Shown here piece by piece: positions 2,295 through 30,837 of a stretch of DNA of 32,000 bases. The first letter of the stretch is position 1, and the number at the start of each line of letters is the position of its first letter. The translations under genes and the position numbers were made by a program. The notes beneath the pieces are model-generated. The model saw only the letters and a list, made by a program, of their open reading frames with translations, did not search any database and had not been told where the DNA came from. The stretch lies in NCBI RefSeq assembly GCF_001644195.2, contig NZ_LWBL02000039.1, positions 38,309-70,308 of the forward strand, written 5' to 3'. Source of the stretch: Bacillus marinisedimentorum. GTDB lineage: Bacteria; Bacillota; Bacilli; Bacillales; Bacillaceae_O.

Positions 2295-3143
2295 CTAATC
2301 GAAAAGCTCCCCGATTGTACAGGAGGTCCGCTTCTCTTTGAAATATGCCTGAAGGACAAGCTGTTCTTCGGCATTCTTTTCCGGCACGCCTTCCTGGTGG
2401 AAAGAATGCTTTTTGGTTCGGTAAAAAAGCGGAAACAGGCCGGTCACTTGTTCATCTCCGCGGACAGAATAATCGACGACCGGTTTTCCGGCAGTAATGG
2501 AAGGCCTTGAATACCGTTCAAGCAGGAACCTGATCAGGAGGTACCCCCGCTGCTTCCACTCCTGCCGGAGAGAAAAAAGGATGAATGAAAATACAAGCCA
2601 CAAATTAAGCTGGTAAGGGATCACAAAAAAAACAGCAGCCGAGCATATGATCAGCAACCCCAGGGAAACAAGCAGCATAACAGCATGGGCTTTTTTAAAG
2701 GGAAGACGCACGGAGAGCAGGAGAAACAGCAGTTTTCCTCCGTCCAGCGGCCAGACCGGGAGGAGATTGAACAGAAGGATAGTCAAATTATATTCCATCA
2801 AGCGGCGGAACAAGTCAGGAGCAAGCAAACCATTCATGCTTAAGCTAATGGCGAGGACCGCAATAAATAGGTGCTGGATTGGACCGGCAAGGATAACAGC
2901 AGCCTCCTCTGCAGCCGGCCTGTTTCCGTATTCTTCCACCTTCGCCACCCCTCCGAACGGCAGCAGCATGACAGAGGTGATCCGCCACTTGTAATATGCA
3001 GCCGCAGCAGCGTGGCCAATTTCATGCCAGAAGACGACCGCGAACAATAAAACGACTTCTGTAAAACGGCCGGAAGCGATTCCGAGTCCGAGTACCAGCC
3101 AAAAAAGCGGATGAATATGGATTTTGCCGAATAGGTCATTCAA
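2295..3143 (-). CDS. spoIVFB: Stage IV sporulation intramembrane metalloprotease SpoIVFB (site-2 protease, M50)
   Basis: HEIGH zinc motif in a TM segment, NLLPVWPLDGG motif and a C-terminal soluble domain. Collinear with B. subtilis SpoIVFB. TTG start at 3141-3143 overlaps the spoIVFA stop codon. Confidence 0.92.
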   Translation of the reverse strand: MNDLFGKIHIHPLFWLVLGLGIASGRFTEVVLLFAVVFWHEIGHAAAAAYYKWRITSVMLLPFGGVAKVEEYGNRPAAEEAAVILAGPIQHLFIAVLAISLSMNGLLAPDLFRRLMEYNLTILLFNLLPVWPLDGGKLLFLLLSVRLPFKKAHAVMLLVSLGLLIICSAAVFFVIPYQLNLWLVFSFILFSLRQEWKQRGYLLIRFLLERYSRPSITAGKPVVDYSVRGDEQVTGLFPLFYRTKKHSFHQEGVPEKNAEEQLVLQAYFKEKRTSCTIGELFD

Positions 3144-3948
3144 ACGGGAACACCTTTAAAGGGTCGATGAAGTCACCGTCTTGCTTAATCGCAAAATAAA
3201 ATGATCCCGCACCGCTGTCCCCCTGTTTCACTGTTCCGATTCTTGTTTTTGTTTCAATGAAGTCGTATAGCCGTACATCTATATCTTCCAGATTTCCATA
3301 CCACGTTTCCCATGTTTTCGTGCCGTCGGCATGCTGGATGATGACCGTATTTCCGAACTCTTCTTTTTGGCCTGCAAAAATGACAATTCCCTCTTTTACA
3401 GCTTCAACAGCCGAATTTCCGCCTGTTTCAAGATGAATCCCTTCACCGTTTTTCTCAAAGCTTTCCGTCACTTTTCCACCGATTACCGGCACCGCATAAT
3501 CATAAGAACTCTCCAGTTTATCGCCGGCAGGAGTCCCTTCACGTTCCGCCTCCTTTTCCGGAAGAAGAGCGACCGGTGTGCCGAATGTGTCTTTATACCA
3601 GGTAGAAACGGCAGCGAACTGAAACTCCTGCTCGAACGTGCTCGTCACAGCCGAACGGGCTTCATCAAGAGCCGGAGTCGTATCCTTGAATAATATTCCG
3701 GCAGATAAAAACAAGGCGGAGGCGGTCAGAATCCTGAATATAAGCCACTCCCTGTTGAAAAGAGGATGCCCTTTGCTGCCTGTTTTCTGAAATTCCTGGG
3801 AACTGAGCGGCGCCAGTCCATGCCTCTCCTCCACTCCCGGCAGCTTCACGTAGCGGCCCGGTCTGCCCTCTTGTTTCACAACCCTGCCCTTACTGGCCTG
3901 CCGGCGCTTTTCAATTCGTTTGCGCGCTTCTGTCACTCGATTTTTCAT
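3136..3948 (-). CDS. spoIVFA: Stage IV sporulation protein FA (degenerate LytM/M23 domain)
   Basis: Collinear with B. subtilis SpoIVFA: RKRIEKRR near the N-terminus, FEQEFQFAAVSTWY, and a C-terminal YFAIKQDGDFIDPLKV. I prefer the ATG at 3946-3948 (RBS GAAGGATGG 8 nt upstream) to the ORF-track start at 3981, which has no RBS. Confidence 0.88.
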   Translation of the reverse strand: MKNRVTEARKRIEKRRQASKGRVVKQEGRPGRYVKLPGVEERHGLAPLSSQEFQKTGSKGHPLFNREWLIFRILTASALFLSAGILFKDTTPALDEARSAVTSTFEQEFQFAAVSTWYKDTFGTPVALLPEKEAEREGTPAGDKLESSYDYAVPVIGGKVTESFEKNGEGIHLETGGNSAVEAVKEGIVIFAGQKEEFGNTVIIQHADGTKTWETWYGNLEDIDVRLYDFIETKTRIGTVKQGDSGAGSFYFAIKQDGDFIDPLKVFPFE

Positions 3949-4040
3949 ATTCACAACCATCCTTCGGCTTTTTACTATCATCCTATGACTTGTCCGTGTG
4001 GTTTATGAGTTAGCGTTCGGTGTTGATATGGTGACTTGCA

Positions 4041-4208
4041 GGGAGTCAGGAGGAAACCGGATTTCAGCACAAAAGAACAAAAGCGCAAGGCGCCCGCTTA
4101 GCGGCGTACGCATAAGCGGGGGTACCCGCAGGAAGGTGATCTTTCCTTCCGAAGGGGATCACCGCTTATGACGATAGCCGCTGGCGCCTGGAGCTGGATG
4201 ACTCCCTT
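4041..4208. repeat. 168 nt nested palindrome (REP/MITE-like structured intergenic element)
   Basis: Nested inverted-repeat pairs: AGGGAGTCA 4041-4049 with TGACTCCCT 4200-4208; AGGCGCC 4089-4095 with GGCGCCT 4184-4190; AGCGGC 4101-4106 with GCCGCT 4178-4183; CATAAGCGG 4112-4120 with CCGCTTATG 4163-4171; GGTGATC 4136-4142 with GATCACC 4158-4164. The GCGCCTGGAGC-type tail resembles GC-rich intergenic repeats I recall from other Bacillus genomes. Confidence 0.6.
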
Positions 4209-4307
4209 CTCGCTTTTTATCCACAACGCAACAATTTTATATTTTCCTTAACAGCAAAAAAACCCTGCCAGAGACAGAGCGTTTCATGAATATTTTAATT
4301 TGAAAGT

Positions 4308-4394
4308 GGAGTCGGCTTCCGATGCAGATGCTTGCTTTCACCAGGAGCATAGTGCGGTATCCGTTCTTGTTTGCCTTCGGTCGCACTTATGGTG
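4308..4394 (+). ncRNA. Copy A of an unclassified structured element (paralog of 23549-23668)
   Basis: Roughly 70% identical by hand alignment to 23566-23650. Hairpin CATAGTGCGGT (4348-4358) with GGTCGCACTTATG (4380-4391) encloses the 21 nt loop ATCCGTTCTTGTTTGCCTTCG. The strand is assigned from two G-U pairs that are only possible in plus-strand RNA. Confidence 0.45.
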
Positions 4395-4767
4395 TATTCT
4401 TTGCCGCTGTCTGGAGGCGAGCCTCCGGCGGGGTTATACCTTTCCTGCCGCTCCCGTCGGAGGGGATTGCTGAAGACAAAAATAAATGGTACAAGGGGAT
4501 CCGGTGATACTCCGCTTTCCCTGCATGCGGTGAGAATTCAGGGATTGATGTTTAACAACATCCTTCGGAAACACGGACGAGCCAAAGCCCCGCAGCCCGG
4601 AATGCAACAAGCGGTGAGGCTGTACGGAGCCTCCGTAAACCCTTGTCAACAGATAAATCCTCCGATATATCATCCTGTCAATAACAGTTAGCACGGTTAT
4701 TGAATTCAGTCTCATTTGAAGAGGCAGTTTCAGGGCGTCCGTTTGAAAAGATTCCCCTCAGGCTGAA

Positions 4768-5565
4768 TTAACGGATTCCGAAAAATTTCTTCATCTTTGC
4801 GAACATTCCTTTTTCCTCTTCCAATGAGAGGAGCGGGACTGATTCACCGAGTATCCGGCGAGCAATGTTGCGGTAGGCGATTGACGCTTTCGTTGAAGGA
4901 TCAAGCGCGATCGGTTCACCGCTATTGGAAGCCTTGATGACATTGTCATCATCAGCGACGATTCCAAGCAGGTCGATAGCCAGGACAGAAACGATTTCAT
5001 CGACATCAAGCATATCGCCGCTTTTCATCATATGATTGCGGATCCTGTTGACAACAAGGCGCGGCGACTCGATTTGATCTTCCTGTTCCAGAAGGCCGAT
5101 GATACGATCAGCGTCTCTTACGGATGACACTTCCGGTGTGGTGACGACAATCGCCTTGTCCGCACCTGCGACGGCATTTTTGAAGCCCTGCTCGATACCG
5201 GCCGGACAGTCAATCAGAATATAATCGAAGTCTTGCTTAAGCTCGTTAATGATTTCTACCATCTGTCCAGGTGTCACCGCCGACTTATCTTTGGTCTGGG
5301 CAGCCGGCAGCAAATATAAATGTTCAAACCGCTTATCTTTGATCAAGGCCTGCTGCAGCCGGCACCGGCCTTCAGCAGCATCGACAAGATCATAAATAAT
5401 CCGGTTTTCAAGCCCCATAACGACATCCAGATTCCGTAGACCGATATCCGTGTCAACAAGGCACACTTTTTTTCCTGTAAGGGCCAGAGCGGTTCCGATA
5501 TTCGCTGTAGTGGTTGTCTTACCTACCCCGCCTTTGCCAGATGTGATGACGATTGCATCTCCCAC
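4768..5565 (-). CDS. minD: Septum site-determining ATPase MinD
   Basis: ITSGKGGVGKTTTTANIG deviant Walker A motif, full-length ParA/MinD fold and a C-terminal amphipathic helix (KGMFAKMKKFFGIR). GTG start with an AAGGGGA RBS. Confidence 0.97.
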   Translation of the reverse strand: MGDAIVITSGKGGVGKTTTTANIGTALALTGKKVCLVDTDIGLRNLDVVMGLENRIIYDLVDAAEGRCRLQQALIKDKRFEHLYLLPAAQTKDKSAVTPGQMVEIINELKQDFDYILIDCPAGIEQGFKNAVAGADKAIVVTTPEVSSVRDADRIIGLLEQEDQIESPRLVVNRIRNHMMKSGDMLDVDEIVSVLAIDLLGIVADDDNVIKASNSGEPIALDPSTKASIAYRNIARRILGESVPLLSLEEEKGMFAKMKKFFGIR

Positions 5566-6847: not shown

Positions 6848-7725
6848 CCCTCATCATCCTCCTTTTGCTGATCCAATTCAGGTTCCGGAGAAACAGCCTG
6901 CCGTTCCACGATCACCACATGGTCAATATCATAAAAGTCTGCGGCAGGCTTGATCAGCGCTGTCTGGGTCAATCCGTATTCATCCGACTGCACCTCAATG
7001 ATTTCCCCGATGACGAGCCCTTCAGGAAAGACACCGCCAAGGCCGGAGGTCACAACCATTTCCCCTTTTTTCACTTCCACATCAAACGGGATACGCTTAA
7101 ACAGCAATGCCTGCTTGTCCGGGTCATATCCTTCGATAAGGCCGAACACTTTTTCTTTGCCGCTGACTACCGCAGATATGCGGTTTGTCCGGTCCATACC
7201 GCTCAACAGCTTGACACTCGACGTAAACTGGGCAGTGAATTTGACCCTTCCAAGCATGCCGTCCGGTGTGATGACAGCCATATCCTGTTTCACACCGTGC
7301 TGTGCTCCTTTATTGACAGTAATCATTTCATTCCAGCGATCCGGACTGCGGGCAATGACAGTGGCCTGGATCGGATTCATATCCGATAAGTCATCTTTTT
7401 TATCAAGGATGTTCCGGAGCCGACCGTTTTCATCCCTAAGCTCGTTAGCTTCGATTGAAAGCTCTACATATTCGTCAAGGCGGGCCTTGAGCCTCGCATT
7501 TTCGCTGTACAAATTCTTCATTTCATCTACGTTTTCAAAGAAACCCGCTACAAATTGAGCGGGTTGGTGAAAGACCGACTGAAACCATCCGGTCGTATCT
7601 TTGACTAACTGTTCCGGCCAGGACAGCTGCTGGCGGTTATTCAAGGAAAAACCGATCAATGCCACGAGAAAGATGATGCTTACTAGCAGGACGATAAGCC
7701 GTTTATTGAAAAAGAATTGTGGCAT
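6844..7725 (-). CDS. mreC: Rod shape-determining protein MreC
   Basis: N-terminal TM segment, coiled coil (NARLKARLDEY) and beta-barrel domains (GMLGRV, VVTSGLGGVFPEGLVIGEI). Acidic tail. Confidence 0.93.
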   Translation of the reverse strand: MPQFFFNKRLIVLLVSIIFLVALIGFSLNNRQQLSWPEQLVKDTTGWFQSVFHQPAQFVAGFFENVDEMKNLYSENARLKARLDEYVELSIEANELRDENGRLRNILDKKDDLSDMNPIQATVIARSPDRWNEMITVNKGAQHGVKQDMAVITPDGMLGRVKFTAQFTSSVKLLSGMDRTNRISAVVSGKEKVFGLIEGYDPDKQALLFKRIPFDVEVKKGEMVVTSGLGGVFPEGLVIGEIIEVQSDEYGLTQTALIKPAADFYDIDHVVIVERQAVSPEPELDQQKEDDEG

Positions 7726-23548: not shown

Positions 23549-23668
23549 GGAGCTTACCCGTTCCTTTCCGCTGCAGACATTCGCTTTCACCACGGACACA
23601 AGGGCGACATCCGTTCCTGCTTCCCTCCGGTCGCACTTGTGCCTATGGTGAAAACGAGCCCCTGCTCC
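23549..23668 (+). ncRNA. Copy B of the unclassified structured element (paralog of 4308-4394); candidate sRNA
   Basis: Nested helices: GGAGC 23549-23553 with GCTCC 23664-23668; TTTCACCA 23585-23592 with TGGTGAAA 23646-23653; CACAAGGGCGAC 23597-23608 with GTCGCACTTGTG 23630-23641. The 21 nt loop is ATCCGTTCCTGCTTCCCTCCG. A plus-strand promoter candidate is TTAACA (23489-23494), 18 nt, TAAAAT (23513-23518). A weak hairpin plus T-run lies at about 23683-23712. Confidence 0.45.
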
Positions 23669-23840
23669 GTATATCAACGTACTCATTTTAAAATGCAATG
23701 TCTTTGCTTTTCTTCCTACAAAATATTGCCCCTTTAATGGAACATCAAGCGGAAATTGTTTTGGGAATTATAAACCGGTTTATCAGAAGATGCATCTAAT
23801 GACGGCATGCAGAACCATTTCTGTTACTCTTATAACCCGA

Positions 23841-23900
23841 ATAACAAGAAGAACAGCAGACCATCCATTTTACGGTTTGGCCCGCTGTTCTTCTTGTTAT
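23841..23900. terminator. Long perfect hairpin; candidate bidirectional terminator between the convergent minor-pilin operon and the GGDEF gene
   Basis: ATAACAAGAAGAACAGC (23841-23857) pairs perfectly with GCTGTTCTTCTTGTTAT (23884-23900), giving 17 bp and a 26 nt loop. Both 3' arms are T-rich. Confidence 0.55.
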
Positions 23901-23977
23901 TTAATGTGTGAAATTACAATTTTCTCCCTCACAAAACGAACCAGCTGCCTTTCACGGAGAGGGGCGCGTGTTCACAA

Positions 23978-25741
23978 TCATGAACTGTAAACCGCAACTT
24001 TGTTTCGCCCTTTCTGTTTAGCTCCGGTATACATGGCACGGTCGGCATGGCGGATGAGTGCCATCGGTTCATCTGCATCTACAGGGGCCGTGGCTATGCC
24101 AAAAGATGCTGTGATTCGTATCATCTCTTTTGATTTATTTTCTCGTTGAATATGCTCTCTTAGCACAAAAGGTTTGCCGGCGATCGTCTGGCGGGCCATT
24201 TCTGCAAAAGCGAAGCAGCGATGCCTGTCCATATCGGGAAGAATAACAACAAACTCTTCTCCACCGTAGCGGATGACAGTTCCCCTGTCACCGGTTATTT
24301 TTTTCAGCCTGTCTGCCACTTCAATCAAAATCTCATTCCCGCTCTGATGACCGTATGTATCATTAATCGCTTTAAAGTGATCGAGATCAAGCATGATCAG
24401 CGACAGGGCCCTTAAGTTCCCGCCTTCAAGCTCAACAAAATTGGAGGCCAGGTACGTTTCCATGTATCGATAATTATATACATTCGTAAGCGAGCACTTT
24501 TCACTTTCTTCCTTCGTCTGTTCATAACTCCGGGCATTTTCAAGTGACACACCCAGATAGCTTCCAAGAATGTCGACAATCGTCAGCTGGAATTTTTCGA
24601 AGGCGCGCTTTTGCTTCGATGCCAGCAAAATAATACCGACAATTTCACGGTTCCGCTGGATCGGCACAGCCAAAATGCTTTCGACATCACCCGGCAACAC
24701 GCCTTTGGACAGAAACCGCCATTCATGCCGGCTATGATAAAGCAGGTTCCTTTCCGTCCGCATCAAACGGTTCGTTATTCCATCGGACCGCCAGAATGGG
24801 TTTTTTCCCTTTCTTGAGTCTGCTGGCTGTCCCGCTTCAAAGTACCGGAGGAGTTTCGTTTTCCTGCCCCTGTCAACGTCGATGATGTAGGCGAAATCAA
24901 CAGGCAGCATTCCCGCGATCTTTTCAATGAACAGATCGAGAATATCATCGGAATTCATGCGCCCCGTCAGTTGATGGCCGATATCGCTCGCTTTTTGCAG
25001 GTACACATTCATCTTCTGGCTTGTGTAATACAGCTTCACAAAAAGGGAGATTGTCATGAATGGGATGCCGACAAACAAGATTGCAACGGTACCCATTTCG
25101 ATATACAGCATATAAAGGACGAGGCCAACAGGGAATACGAGCAGGCTTGTGAGCGCCTCCCAGGCTGCATCCTTGCCGAATACAGGCCTTTTTTCTCCAG
25201 TCATATACAGCTGAACGACCATTAAAAAAATCTGGTTGGCAGCAAAAATGGCTGCGGCATATAGCATCACCTGAAGTAGCCTGTCCATATCGGACAGCAT
25301 GATAGCGCCATGCTGGCCTCCCGCAAGGTTGTAGATGGTTCCACCGGAAAGCGATACGAACAGGAACATCAAAAGATTGGCTGGTATGCGGTACGACTGC
25401 TGTGAAGGGATTTTCAGCTTGATCAGCAATACGGCTACCGCGGCCTGTGTCAGGACCATTTCAATAAAGAGGCCGAAATATAAAAAAACAGAGAGTGATA
25501 TCCCCTGGATAAAGAAAACAGGGGTTTCGTTTACAATAATCGGGAAAAAGGCGACAAGGCACATCAGCAATAAAAAGGCGATTATATCTTGTCCGGCACC
25601 CTGAATCACCGGGTCAGACGTCTGATACACACCGAGTAAAATAAGCGGCCATAATATTGCTGCCGCACCCCAGAGTCCAGCCGCTTTGGCTTTACTCACC
25701 CTCATAAGGCCCTCCACCCTTCTTTGTTCATCTATTTTCAT
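23978..25741 (-). CDS. Membrane-bound GAF-GGDEF diguanylate cyclase
   Basis: A polytopic N-terminal half, a central GAF-like region (ESILAVPIQRNREIVGIILLAS) and a C-terminal GGDEF domain with an intact RYGGEEF active-site motif plus DLDHFKAINDTYGH. The true start may be the ATG at 25703-25705 (RBS GGTGGAGGG), because the first ATG at 25741 has no RBS. Confidence 0.88.
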   Translation of the reverse strand: MKIDEQRRVEGLMRVSKAKAAGLWGAAAILWPLILLGVYQTSDPVIQGAGQDIIAFLLLMCLVAFFPIIVNETPVFFIQGISLSVFLYFGLFIEMVLTQAAVAVLLIKLKIPSQQSYRIPANLLMFLFVSLSGGTIYNLAGGQHGAIMLSDMDRLLQVMLYAAAIFAANQIFLMVVQLYMTGEKRPVFGKDAAWEALTSLLVFPVGLVLYMLYIEMGTVAILFVGIPFMTISLFVKLYYTSQKMNVYLQKASDIGHQLTGRMNSDDILDLFIEKIAGMLPVDFAYIIDVDRGRKTKLLRYFEAGQPADSRKGKNPFWRSDGITNRLMRTERNLLYHSRHEWRFLSKGVLPGDVESILAVPIQRNREIVGIILLASKQKRAFEKFQLTIVDILGSYLGVSLENARSYEQTKEESEKCSLTNVYNYRYMETYLASNFVELEGGNLRALSLIMLDLDHFKAINDTYGHQSGNEILIEVADRLKKITGDRGTVIRYGGEEFVVILPDMDRHRCFAFAEMARQTIAGKPFVLREHIQRENKSKEMIRITASFGIATAPVDADEPMALIRHADRAMYTGAKQKGRNKVAVYSS

Positions 25742-29959: not shown

Positions 29960-30258
29960 CCAATAAAAAAAGCCTTTTTCACCAAAAGGGCGAAAAAAGC
30001 TGTATCCGCGGTACCACCTTTATTTGCCTGAACAGGAATGCTGAAAAATCCTGCCCGGCACACTTCATCGGATAACGGCTTATGCCGGCTTCTTCTACTG
30101 ATGCCATAAGGCCCTTGTTCAAAGAAGCTGCTTGAGGGCGACCTTCCGAATACATGGATCCTGGAAATTCTCTCAGCAAACTGAATTTCCTCTCTTTAGG
30201 CCTTGCATCCATACTCTTCCCTGTCCCAGCATTTCATTCATGGACTTTTTCAAATACT
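29960..30258 (-). promoter_or_regulatory. T-box leader (valine specifier) controlling valS
   Basis: The minus strand shows stem I elements (AGAGA, GCTGAGAG), a candidate specifier GTC in GGAAGGTCGCC (30140-30142), and the T-box sequence AAAGGTGGTACCGCGG (about 30006-30023). The terminator GCCCTTTTGGTGAAAAAGGC (29972-29991) plus TTTTTTT competes with the antiterminator. Confidence 0.85.
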
Positions 30259-30299: not shown

Positions 30300-30645
30300 C
30301 TATTGTTCCCCGTTTTTTTGATTTTTATTCATAATGATTTGGCTGTAAGCAAACTGGATTCATTATACACGTCTTTCCGTTAGGGTTTTTCGTAAACATT
30401 GCTCCTGTTTTAACAGGGCGGGTTGATTTCTGATACAATACTCACTTTCACCTGGACCACAAGTGCTGCATCAGTTCATGGTTACCTTCGGCCGCATCCA
30501 CAGTATGTTCTTTGCCGGAGGGCTTCAGGCATATCCATTCATTCCCGTCCATAACTCTTTCTTCACAAATACACTTTTCCCCGACCTCCTGCATAAACTG
30601 GTTTTAACACGACTGGACGCTCTATGCTTCTGGAAGGAGGAAATC

Positions 30646-30837
30646 ATGAAAAGACGTTACTGGAAGTACAGGCTGCCGCCCGGTGTAAGGAAGTTCAGGG
30701 ACATTTGCGAACAAATCACTCTGCCGTTATGTATATTCCAGCTGATCAGAACGCTGCTCTTTCCAACAACCCTTGATGTCATTTTTTTAATCTGCCTTGT
30801 ATTTCTGCTGTGTTGTTTTTATTTGGGATGGTTATAG
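30646..30837 (+). CDS. Small (63 aa) hydrophobic membrane protein
   Basis: An ATG 5 nt after a strong RBS (GGAAGGAGGAAATC). A basic N-terminus (MKRRYWKYRLPPGVRKFR) is followed by two hydrophobic segments. The ORF-track version starts at a GTG at 30463 with no RBS and a non-protein-like N-terminal extension. Confidence 0.55.
   Translation: MKRRYWKYRLPPGVRKFRDICEQITLPLCIFQLIRTLLFPTTLDVIFLICLVFLLCCFYLGWL

Follow-up and report, generated by a model that had tools for sequence, protein, structure and literature searches.

What occupies the long stretch of DNA between minD and spoIVFA in Bacillus marinisedimentorum? A sequence-only reading of this locus had drawn attention to a noncoding, hairpin-dense spacer of about 0.8 kb and had proposed that it could be a large structured RNA, a long structured minD 3′ untranslated region (UTR), or a pile-up of nonautonomous elements. 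We examined the spacer within the window, by which we mean the whole 32-kb stretch of DNA that was analyzed, and compared it with the orthologous loci of related genomes. With a probability of roughly 0.6, we consider the spacer to be a lineage-specific mosaic of a promoter, small palindromic repeats, and orphan DNA, and not one large RNA. The earlier observation was real but over-read. Literature searches returned no paper on the minD-spoIVFA locus or on repeats of B. marinisedimentorum.

The spacer and its flanking genes

The genes of the locus lie on the minus strand in the order rplU (with its L21 leader at 654-722), an RNase G-like gene, spoIVFB (2295-3143), spoIVFA, the gap, minD (4768-5565), minC, and mreDCB. 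As an open reading frame (ORF), spoIVFA spans 3136-3981; its true start is likely the ATG at 3948, behind GAAGGATGG, and this start agrees with the 270-amino-acid product at NCBI. The gap reported earlier is real and measures 786 nt, or 819 nt when counted from the ATG at 3948. Its GC content (50%) was the highest of all the intergenic regions in the window, the others ranging from 27 to 44%.

The SpoIVFA, MinD, and ValS proteins were 100% identical to proteins of Bacillus marinisedimentorum. The sole close relative in the collections was a metagenome-assembled genome (MAG) labeled Alkalihalobacillus macyae (here, B. macyae), with 82 to 83% identity in SpoIVFA and 97% in MinD. Beyond B. macyae, the SpoIVFA identity of the next relatives fell to 51%. 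The same spacer is 138 nt long in B. tianshenii and 213 nt long in B. solimangrovi, where a canonical terminator within a few bases of the minD stop codon is followed by the promoter. Among other Bacillaceae, it measured ~220 to 520 nt in four and 1.5 to 3 kb in three more. Compared to the outgroups B. tianshenii and B. solimangrovi, the spacers of both B. marinisedimentorum and B. macyae are expanded.

At the spoIVFA end of the spacer, we predict a sigma-E-type promoter for spoIVFA-spoIVFB at 3980-4008 on the minus strand, with the layout TCATAAA-N14-CATAGGAT (−35 element at 4008-4002 and −10 element at 3987-3980). In an alignment of four species, CGGACAAGTCATAnGATG in the −10 region was invariant, with CATA upstream, and the block in common with B. 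macyae spans 3949 to ~4050, with 93% identity over 42 nt. We take this site to be a sigma-E-dependent promoter by its likeness to the published spoIVF promoter of B. subtilis and to the consensus for sigma-E; the two elements and their conserved spacing fit that class. The likeness to a B. subtilis-type spoIVF promoter extends to the block CATA...GGACAAGTCATAnGATG, which is kept in all four species, and to the position of spoIVFA-spoIVFB directly downstream. In contrast, the B. subtilis-type terminator of minD, which lies within a few bases of the stop codon in B. tianshenii and B. solimangrovi, is here displaced by ~0.5 kb. The sequence-only reading had included neither this promoter nor the dispersed repeat at 4317-4406 and the hairpin at 4082-4195 that are described below.

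R1, a dispersed palindromic repeat

Searches with blastn and nhmmer identified a single dispersed repeat in the 32-kb window, R1, which is ~90 to 115 nt long and has the consensus TTCCGCTGCAGACAYTCGCTTTCACC...ATCCGTTCCTGCTTCCCTCCGGTCGCAC. Its three copies in the window lie on the plus strand in unrelated contexts. Copy A, in the minD 3′ region, extends from 4317 to ~4431; its core is at 4317-4406, and a degenerate right arm reaching to ~4431 takes in the hairpin at 4404-4431. Copy B (23566-23672) is intergenic, lies between convergent genes, and is the most complete palindrome. Copy C (30428-30536) precedes the valS T-box promoter region and a small ORF on the plus strand. The core of copy A was 74 to 76% identical to 23566-23650 and 30428-30517 (nhmmer E values of 1e-21 to 1e-24). 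A fourth copy was present in B. macyae (positions 1 to 69 of sequence L001), at a distance of 335 nt from spoIVFA on its upstream side; contig JAENYN010000045 breaks off within this copy. With the B. macyae copy included, the R1 matches had E values of 1e-19 to 1e-24 by blastn and nhmmer. R1 is demonstrably a dispersed repeat.

Copy B forms a near-complete palindrome of ~105 nt (−52.8 kcal/mol on the minus strand), and the nhmmer model of R1 also matched its right arm in reverse. Copies A and C share ...TTCTTTGCCG in their right arms, which have diverged. All copies share the left arm (TTCCGCTGCAGAYRYTCGCTTTCACC...), a 7-bp stem inside it (GTGCGRY/GTCGCAC), and a C/U-rich loop of 21 nt, ATCCGTTCNTGNTTNCCTYCGG. 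Conservation of the loop equals that of the arms, and the left arm and loop are better kept than the right arm, a pattern that is odd for a simple hairpin element and that weighs against our preferred reading. All four copies point the same way, on the strand whose GC skew is negative, a tendency that is not significant with a sample of four. On the minus strand, a T7 run could be read within 20 to 55 nt downstream of three of the four copies, which suggests that R1 may be associated with terminators.

Like a MITE, R1 is dispersed in multiple copies, three within the 32 kb and a fourth in B. macyae. As to terminal inverted repeats, copy B is a near-full-length palindrome, but copies A and C have divergent right arms. 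No target-site duplication was recognizable around R1, the ends of which are not sharply defined. The nearest described analogues of R1 in Bacillus appear to be the bcr repeats of the B. cereus group. Of these, bcr1 is ~155 bp long, has 5-bp direct-repeat flanks, is transcribed, and is not conserved in position between strains (PMC3184786). R1 shares with the MITE-like repeats bcr1 to bcr18 a noncoding, intergenic, multicopy, hairpin-forming, and lineage-restricted character, a length of ~100 nt, and a position that varies between genomes. The comparison is one of descriptions only, and it also brings out differences, in that R1 belongs to another host clade and no direct repeat was recognizable at its flanks. 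Further, bcr1 folds as a cruciform with two stem-loops, whereas R1 makes a single hairpin whose 21-nt loop is conserved.

REPIN/RAYT systems are known mainly from Proteobacteria. Compared with REPINs as defined in PMC3116915 and PMC3337134 and with the REP tags GTAG/CGTC described in PMC3733652, R1 resembles these elements in its two inverted ~25-nt arms around a spacer, in its hairpin of ~80 to 110 nt, and in being dense (three copies per 32 kb), extragenic, often 3′ of genes, and persistent in a lineage. R1 departs from them in that its arms are not short GC-rich palindromes, its loop is as conserved as the arms, and the GTAG/CGTC head is missing; GTAG, CTAC, CGTC, and GACG were absent on either strand from all three copies in the window.

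Element P and the comparison with B. macyae

Folding of the whole spacer gave z scores of −2.2/−2.5, mainly because of one hairpin at 4082-4195. In sliding 120-nt windows, the only stand-out was 4090-4209 (z, −5.8/−4.6); scores stayed near 0 from 4240 to 4600 and did not go below −2.4 from 4600 to 4780, near minD. The hairpin is the rod of element P (~4052-4266), a long imperfect palindrome with an AT-rich conserved arm at 4196-4266, and P is the only strongly structured part of the spacer. With its flanks, P had a minimum free energy of −78 kcal/mol on either strand (z, −3.8 and −4.8). The rod, with the inverted arms I1 and I4, has 37 to 39 pairs on either strand, of which none or one is G-U and the others are Watson-Crick. 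It is therefore strand symmetric, like a DNA palindrome. The only pairing of P beyond the rod is AGGAAA/UUUCCU.

On the minus strand, the rod is preceded by an A-tract (AUAAAAAGCG) and followed by a U-tract (CUUUUGUUCUUUUG, 4083-4070), which is the layout of a bidirectional intrinsic terminator. The terminator scan also placed a terminator-like site at the base of P (4095-4081, followed by UUGUUCUUUU). P is flanked by 10-nt direct repeats that match at 9 of 10 positions (TTTTTTGCTG, 4261-4252; TTTTGTGCTG, 4074-4065); these are low-complexity and T-rich, and they may represent either a target-site duplication or a chance match in T-rich sequence. SPRITEs are dispersed repeats with a terminator-like fold (PMC3184786). 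P and R1 resemble SPRITEs and bidirectional terminators in lying by T-runs at predicted transcript 3′ ends, as does P in having its hairpin between an A-tract and a U-tract. The ~115-nt rod, however, is far beyond the stem of a normal terminator, and P is single-copy in the DNA that was read. We place the region in the general kind of small palindromic intergenic repeats and assign R1 and P to no named family.

P matched positions 6951-7057 of the B. macyae sequence L010 (window 4265-4160) with 92.5 to 94.5% identity over 91 to 107 nt, including 56 consecutive identical bases. B. macyae supplies only one arm of P, as contig JAENYN010000085 ends inside the element. For comparison, fourfold-degenerate sites in six flanking genes were 56 to 71% identical between the two species. 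Thus, P, at 92 to 94%, is under strong constraint or of recent common origin. The left junction of P is also alike in both species and consists of a T-rich run, (G)CTG, and then TTAAGG. P occurred once in the 32 kb of the window and once in 18 kb of B. macyae, and so it does not show the multiple copies of a MITE within the DNA read.

The arrangement of the elements differed between the two genomes. In the window, the order from minD is orphan DNA, R1, a hairpin followed by T7, P, the promoter, and spoIVFA. In B. macyae, minD is followed by ~120 nt, a T-run, P, an assembly gap, R1, T7, an AT-rich stretch of ~280 nt with a clean terminator at its end, and the promoter. P is located on the B. 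macyae contig that carries mreB to minD (JAENYN010000085, which ends 228 nt after minD), and R1 is located on the contig that carries spoIVFA; thus, R1 is on the minD side of P in one genome and on the spoIVFA side in the other. Each species also has DNA that is private to it, namely, the AT-rich 280 nt in B. macyae and 340 to 360 nt of orphan DNA in the window. Both short-read contigs of B. macyae stop inside palindromic elements, one in R1 and the other in P. Taken as sequence, the two-species comparison looks like a hotspot for small nonautonomous insertions, unlike a conserved large RNA.

Neither R1 nor P occurred at the orthologous locus in nine other Bacillaceae or on the contig with the best other ValS match (L011; 85% identity). 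Exact-pattern scans for both elements in IMG/VR and metagenome contigs gave zero matches. In the search for the sites orthologous to R1 copies B and C, no intact ValS was on record for the B. macyae MAG. As far as can be seen, R1 and P are confined to the small B. marinisedimentorum/B. macyae clade.

A possible but rather unlikely alternative to the mosaic makes P a functional signal of this clade, at the RNA or DNA level (for instance, a small RNA of ~165 to 190 nt or a dedicated structured terminator), that is vertically inherited at the locus, with R1 as an unrelated passenger; the spacer would then owe its length to a genuine gene or regulatory module. The 92 to 94% identity and the 56-nt identical run, set against 56 to 71% at neutral sites, would be expected of such a signal, as would the T-run left junction that is the same in both species, the single copy in all DNA available, and the strong, significant rod between an A-tract and a U-tract. 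Reading of the sequence also places a TATAAAAT box 5′ of the rod. Against this, the sigma-70 scan of the minus strand found no sigma-A-type promoter passing in front of P, P matched no Rfam family, and the near absence of G-U pairs together with an equal fold on both strands is a habit of DNA palindromes that is unusual in mature RNA. Moreover, P is absent at the locus in B. tianshenii, B. solimangrovi, and seven other Bacillaceae, and the B. macyae contig breaks inside it. Candidate promoters before P for sigma-A, -B, -D, -H, -W, -F, -G, and -K were also read by eye and were unconvincing, and neither strand offered a convincing promoter for P.

It is important to note that some observations run against the mosaic reading as well. 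P was seen once per sample with the same left junction, which fits vertical inheritance plus selection equally, and the contig breaks may reflect sequencing drop-out at strong hairpins. We find it doubtful that P is an undescribed clade-specific structured RNA or DNA signal under strong purifying selection upstream of the promoter of spoIVF (the pro-sigma-K checkpoint), for instance, a rod-shaped small RNA or an insulator, and/or that R1 is a small-RNA family whose C/U-rich loop (CCUCC/CCUUC, anti-Shine-Dalgarno-like) pairs with ribosome-binding sites.

The minD-proximal DNA and the origin of the spacer

Immediately downstream of the minD stop codon lies orphan noncoding DNA (4432-4767) with a GC content of 51% (56% over 4407-4600). 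We analyzed it as 4407-4767, thus overlapping the degenerate right arm of R1. In this form, it folded with z scores of ~0 to −2.4, it aligned locally with P, R1, and the B. macyae pieces no better than shuffles did, and no counterpart was present in the assembled B. macyae flanks. The possibility that it is a decayed copy of R1 or P was negative by nhmmer and by local alignment against shuffles. The orphan DNA (4432-4767) is probably part of a long minD 3′ UTR. The first terminator-like site downstream of minD, 488 to 514 nt past the stop codon, is a weak hairpin followed by T7 on the minus strand (4254-4280; eight pairs, three of them G-U) that was found in the terminator scan; the T-run itself had been noted earlier and is a T7 at 4256-4262. 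The predicted matches to the intrinsic-terminator pattern are 4280-4262 followed by T7 and 4095-4081. In total, three terminator-like sites were counted, compared to 1.8 ± 1.6 in shuffles, a count that is not significant by itself.

The spacer is noncoding, as had been claimed. Codon-usage log-odds were negative in all six frames (real genes in frame, +0.31 ± 0.09), and a Pfam search of eight spacer ORFs at E values of ≤10 gave no credible match. Six-frame tblastn of the spacer against the relatives' loci found DNA-level matches only, without protein-level similarity. A phmmer search of the 106-amino-acid spacer ORF against 1.84 billion proteins returned four matches, all of them long repeat proteins with 5 to 10 summed stretches each. 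We rejected these as repeat-summing artifacts; the two that were inspected are tandem-repeat proteins, one of them ankyrin-like, and Pfam did not detect an ankyrin repeat in the ORF. The spacer had no blastn match among plasmids or phages, and neither a clean insertion sequence (IS) match nor a pseudogene of the kind that BLASTX would reveal was found. The spacer has neither the codon usage nor the protein homology of a protein-coding gene or pseudogene. It is thus very unlikely that decay of a protein-coding gene or of an IS gave rise to the orphan DNA (4407-4767) or to the whole spacer, despite GC at coding level, two overlapping ORFs of 93 and 106 amino acids, which are of a length expected by chance, and the 1.5 to 3 kb of extra DNA at this locus in other Bacillaceae.

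The individual features on which the impression of a structured region had been based are all present, to within 2 nt of the positions given: the hairpin CCGC..GCGG at 4404-4431, the stems GATGTTTAACAACATC at 4547-4562 and ACGGAGCCTCCGT at 4624-4636, and the long-range pair ACAAGGG (4491-4497) with CCCTTGT (4640-4646). The octamer GCGGTGAG does occur twice, at 4611 as given and at 4528 rather than 4526. We judged the counts of hairpins, octamers, and 7-mers against shuffles. Perfect hairpins of 5 to 6 bp were about twice as frequent as in shuffles (P of ~0.03 to 0.04), so that the description of the DNA as packed with stems is borne out only marginally, and the counts within minD were similar. 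Repeated octamers (6 observed versus 5.3 expected) and long-range 7-mer complements (13 observed versus 11.2 expected) were at the level of chance, and most of the listed stems were near it.

No known RNA was found in the spacer. At the gathering threshold, Rfam 15 identified only the T-box and the L21 leader in the whole window and assigned the spacer to no family. At E values of ≤10, the region from 3800 to 4950 gave only noise matches of 16 to 17 bits on both strands, and R1 copy B likewise gave only noise. Among eight related loci, Rfam found no known RNA in the spacers. ARAGORN found no tRNA or tmRNA, and Tandem Repeats Finder found nothing. Apart from the whole-spacer z scores of −2.2/−2.5, a GC content of 50% that is well above that of other intergenic regions, and the modest excess of short hairpins, little points to the whole 0.8 kb as one large structured noncoding RNA or a functionally structured minD 3′ UTR, and we regard this as highly improbable, because the structure signal is confined to P (z of ~0 over 4240-4600), no Rfam family matched even at E values of ≤10, ~60% of the spacer (4240-4767) folds as well as shuffles or barely better and is absent from the assembled B. 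macyae spacer, the minD-proximal 360 nt have no counterpart in the B. macyae flanks, the elements are ordered differently in the two species, the region is split by a terminator-like T7, and the R1 part is also present at two unrelated loci.

Among the identities first proposed for the spacer, a pile-up of nonautonomous elements fits best. R1, as a dispersed repeat, bears this out for part of the spacer; for the remainder, where P occurs once per genome sample and ~340 to 360 nt are orphan, the description is an extrapolation. According to the mosaic reading, a normally short region (140 to 270 nt in relatives, with a terminator and a sigma-E promoter) would have been expanded by lineage-specific insertions in both species. 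R1 is a 90- to 115-nt palindromic dispersed repeat of the MITE/REPIN type, and P is a rod-like palindrome of ~180 to 215 nt with an A-tract 5′ and a U-tract 3′. R1 and probably P would be small nonautonomous DNA elements whose insertion sites are at the T-tracts of terminators or adjacent to them. Since the insertions lie between minD and its terminator, minCD transcripts are predicted to have a 3′ UTR of ~0.5 kb. These transcripts would stop at the T7 hairpin, which is weak, and/or at P. As a bidirectional terminator or an insulator, P could then prevent vegetative transcripts from running into the mother-cell-specific spoIVF operon, a role that a simple terminator immediately after minD would fill in the outgroups. 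Downstream of all insertions, spoIVFAB would be transcribed from its own conserved sigma-E promoter.

Overall, the region is an ordinary to mildly interesting composite intergenic region. For annotation, it is useful, if unsurprising, that such repeats break short-read assemblies and mimic structured RNAs. Should P turn out to be single-copy and under selection, a new candidate for a regulatory RNA or insulator would lie just upstream of the sigma-E promoter of the SpoIVFA/SpoIVFB checkpoint operon, with a very narrow phylogenetic range. If the mosaic reading is true, small palindromic repeats colonize terminator regions in a little-studied Bacillus clade, and a terminator has been pushed 0.5 kb downstream while the neighboring sporulation promoter was left undisturbed.

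Copies of R1 outside the minD-spoIVFA spacer

Two further copies of R1, the dispersed palindromic repeat of ~90 to 115 nt, were found in the window, copy B at 23566-23672 and copy C at 30428-30536. Of the R1 copies, copy B has the fullest palindrome, with a minus-strand folding energy of -52.8 kcal/mol. The three copies in the window share the same orientation, and their strand is that of negative GC skew. A separate 62-nt palindrome, distinct from R1, lies at 23840-23901, downstream of the minus-strand gene at 23978-25741, and has a 17-bp stem (AATAACAAGAAGAACAGC...GCTGTTCTTCTTGTTAT); besides its R1 copy and T-run, this intergenic region therefore has a long hairpin as well.

The left end of copy C contains the -10 element of a sigma-70-like site on the plus strand (30410-30439; TTAACA-N18-TACAAT with a TG extension; 10/12 matches). 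Downstream on the same strand is a small ORF (30647-30837), with an ATG at 30647 and the RBS GGAAGGAGG. The repeat may here contribute part of a putative promoter upstream of the ORF. The window also carries two canonical leaders on the minus strand: valS is preceded by a T-box (29983-30236; 104 bits) and rplU by an L21 leader (654-722; 59 bits).

Limits of the spacer and of palindrome P

In the ORF listing, spoIVFA begins at 3981, with an alternative ATG at 3948 preceded by GAAGGATGG. Translation from the latter yields a 270-aa product that matches the B. marinisedimentorum protein at NCBI with 100% identity, and thus the true gap between minD and spoIVFA is ~819 nt. Within it, the long imperfect palindrome P is flanked by a 10-nt direct repeat (4065-4074 and 4252-4261; minus strand, TTTTGTGCTG and TTTTTTGCTG; 9/10 match), which could be a target-site duplication or a chance match in T-rich sequence.

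The locus in other Bacillaceae

In the B. macyae MAG, a break coincides exactly with the minD-spoIVFA spacer, where both flanking contigs stop: the spoIVFA-side end falls within R1 (L001/L009, 1-69) and the minD-side end within P (L010, 6951-7057). Upstream of the spoIVF promoter, L001 carries a 23-codon ORF (MKYFGAAANFKNIDKINVNSVFA) followed by a clean predicted intrinsic terminator (~195-310), with no counterpart of either in the window. The minD-spoIVFA gap reaches 1.5 to 3 kb in B. coahuilensis, Alkalihalobacillus sp., and Alkalicoccobacillus gibsonii (L005, L006, and L007, respectively). On the basis of these gap lengths, the locus appears to be a recurrent insertion site across Bacillaceae.
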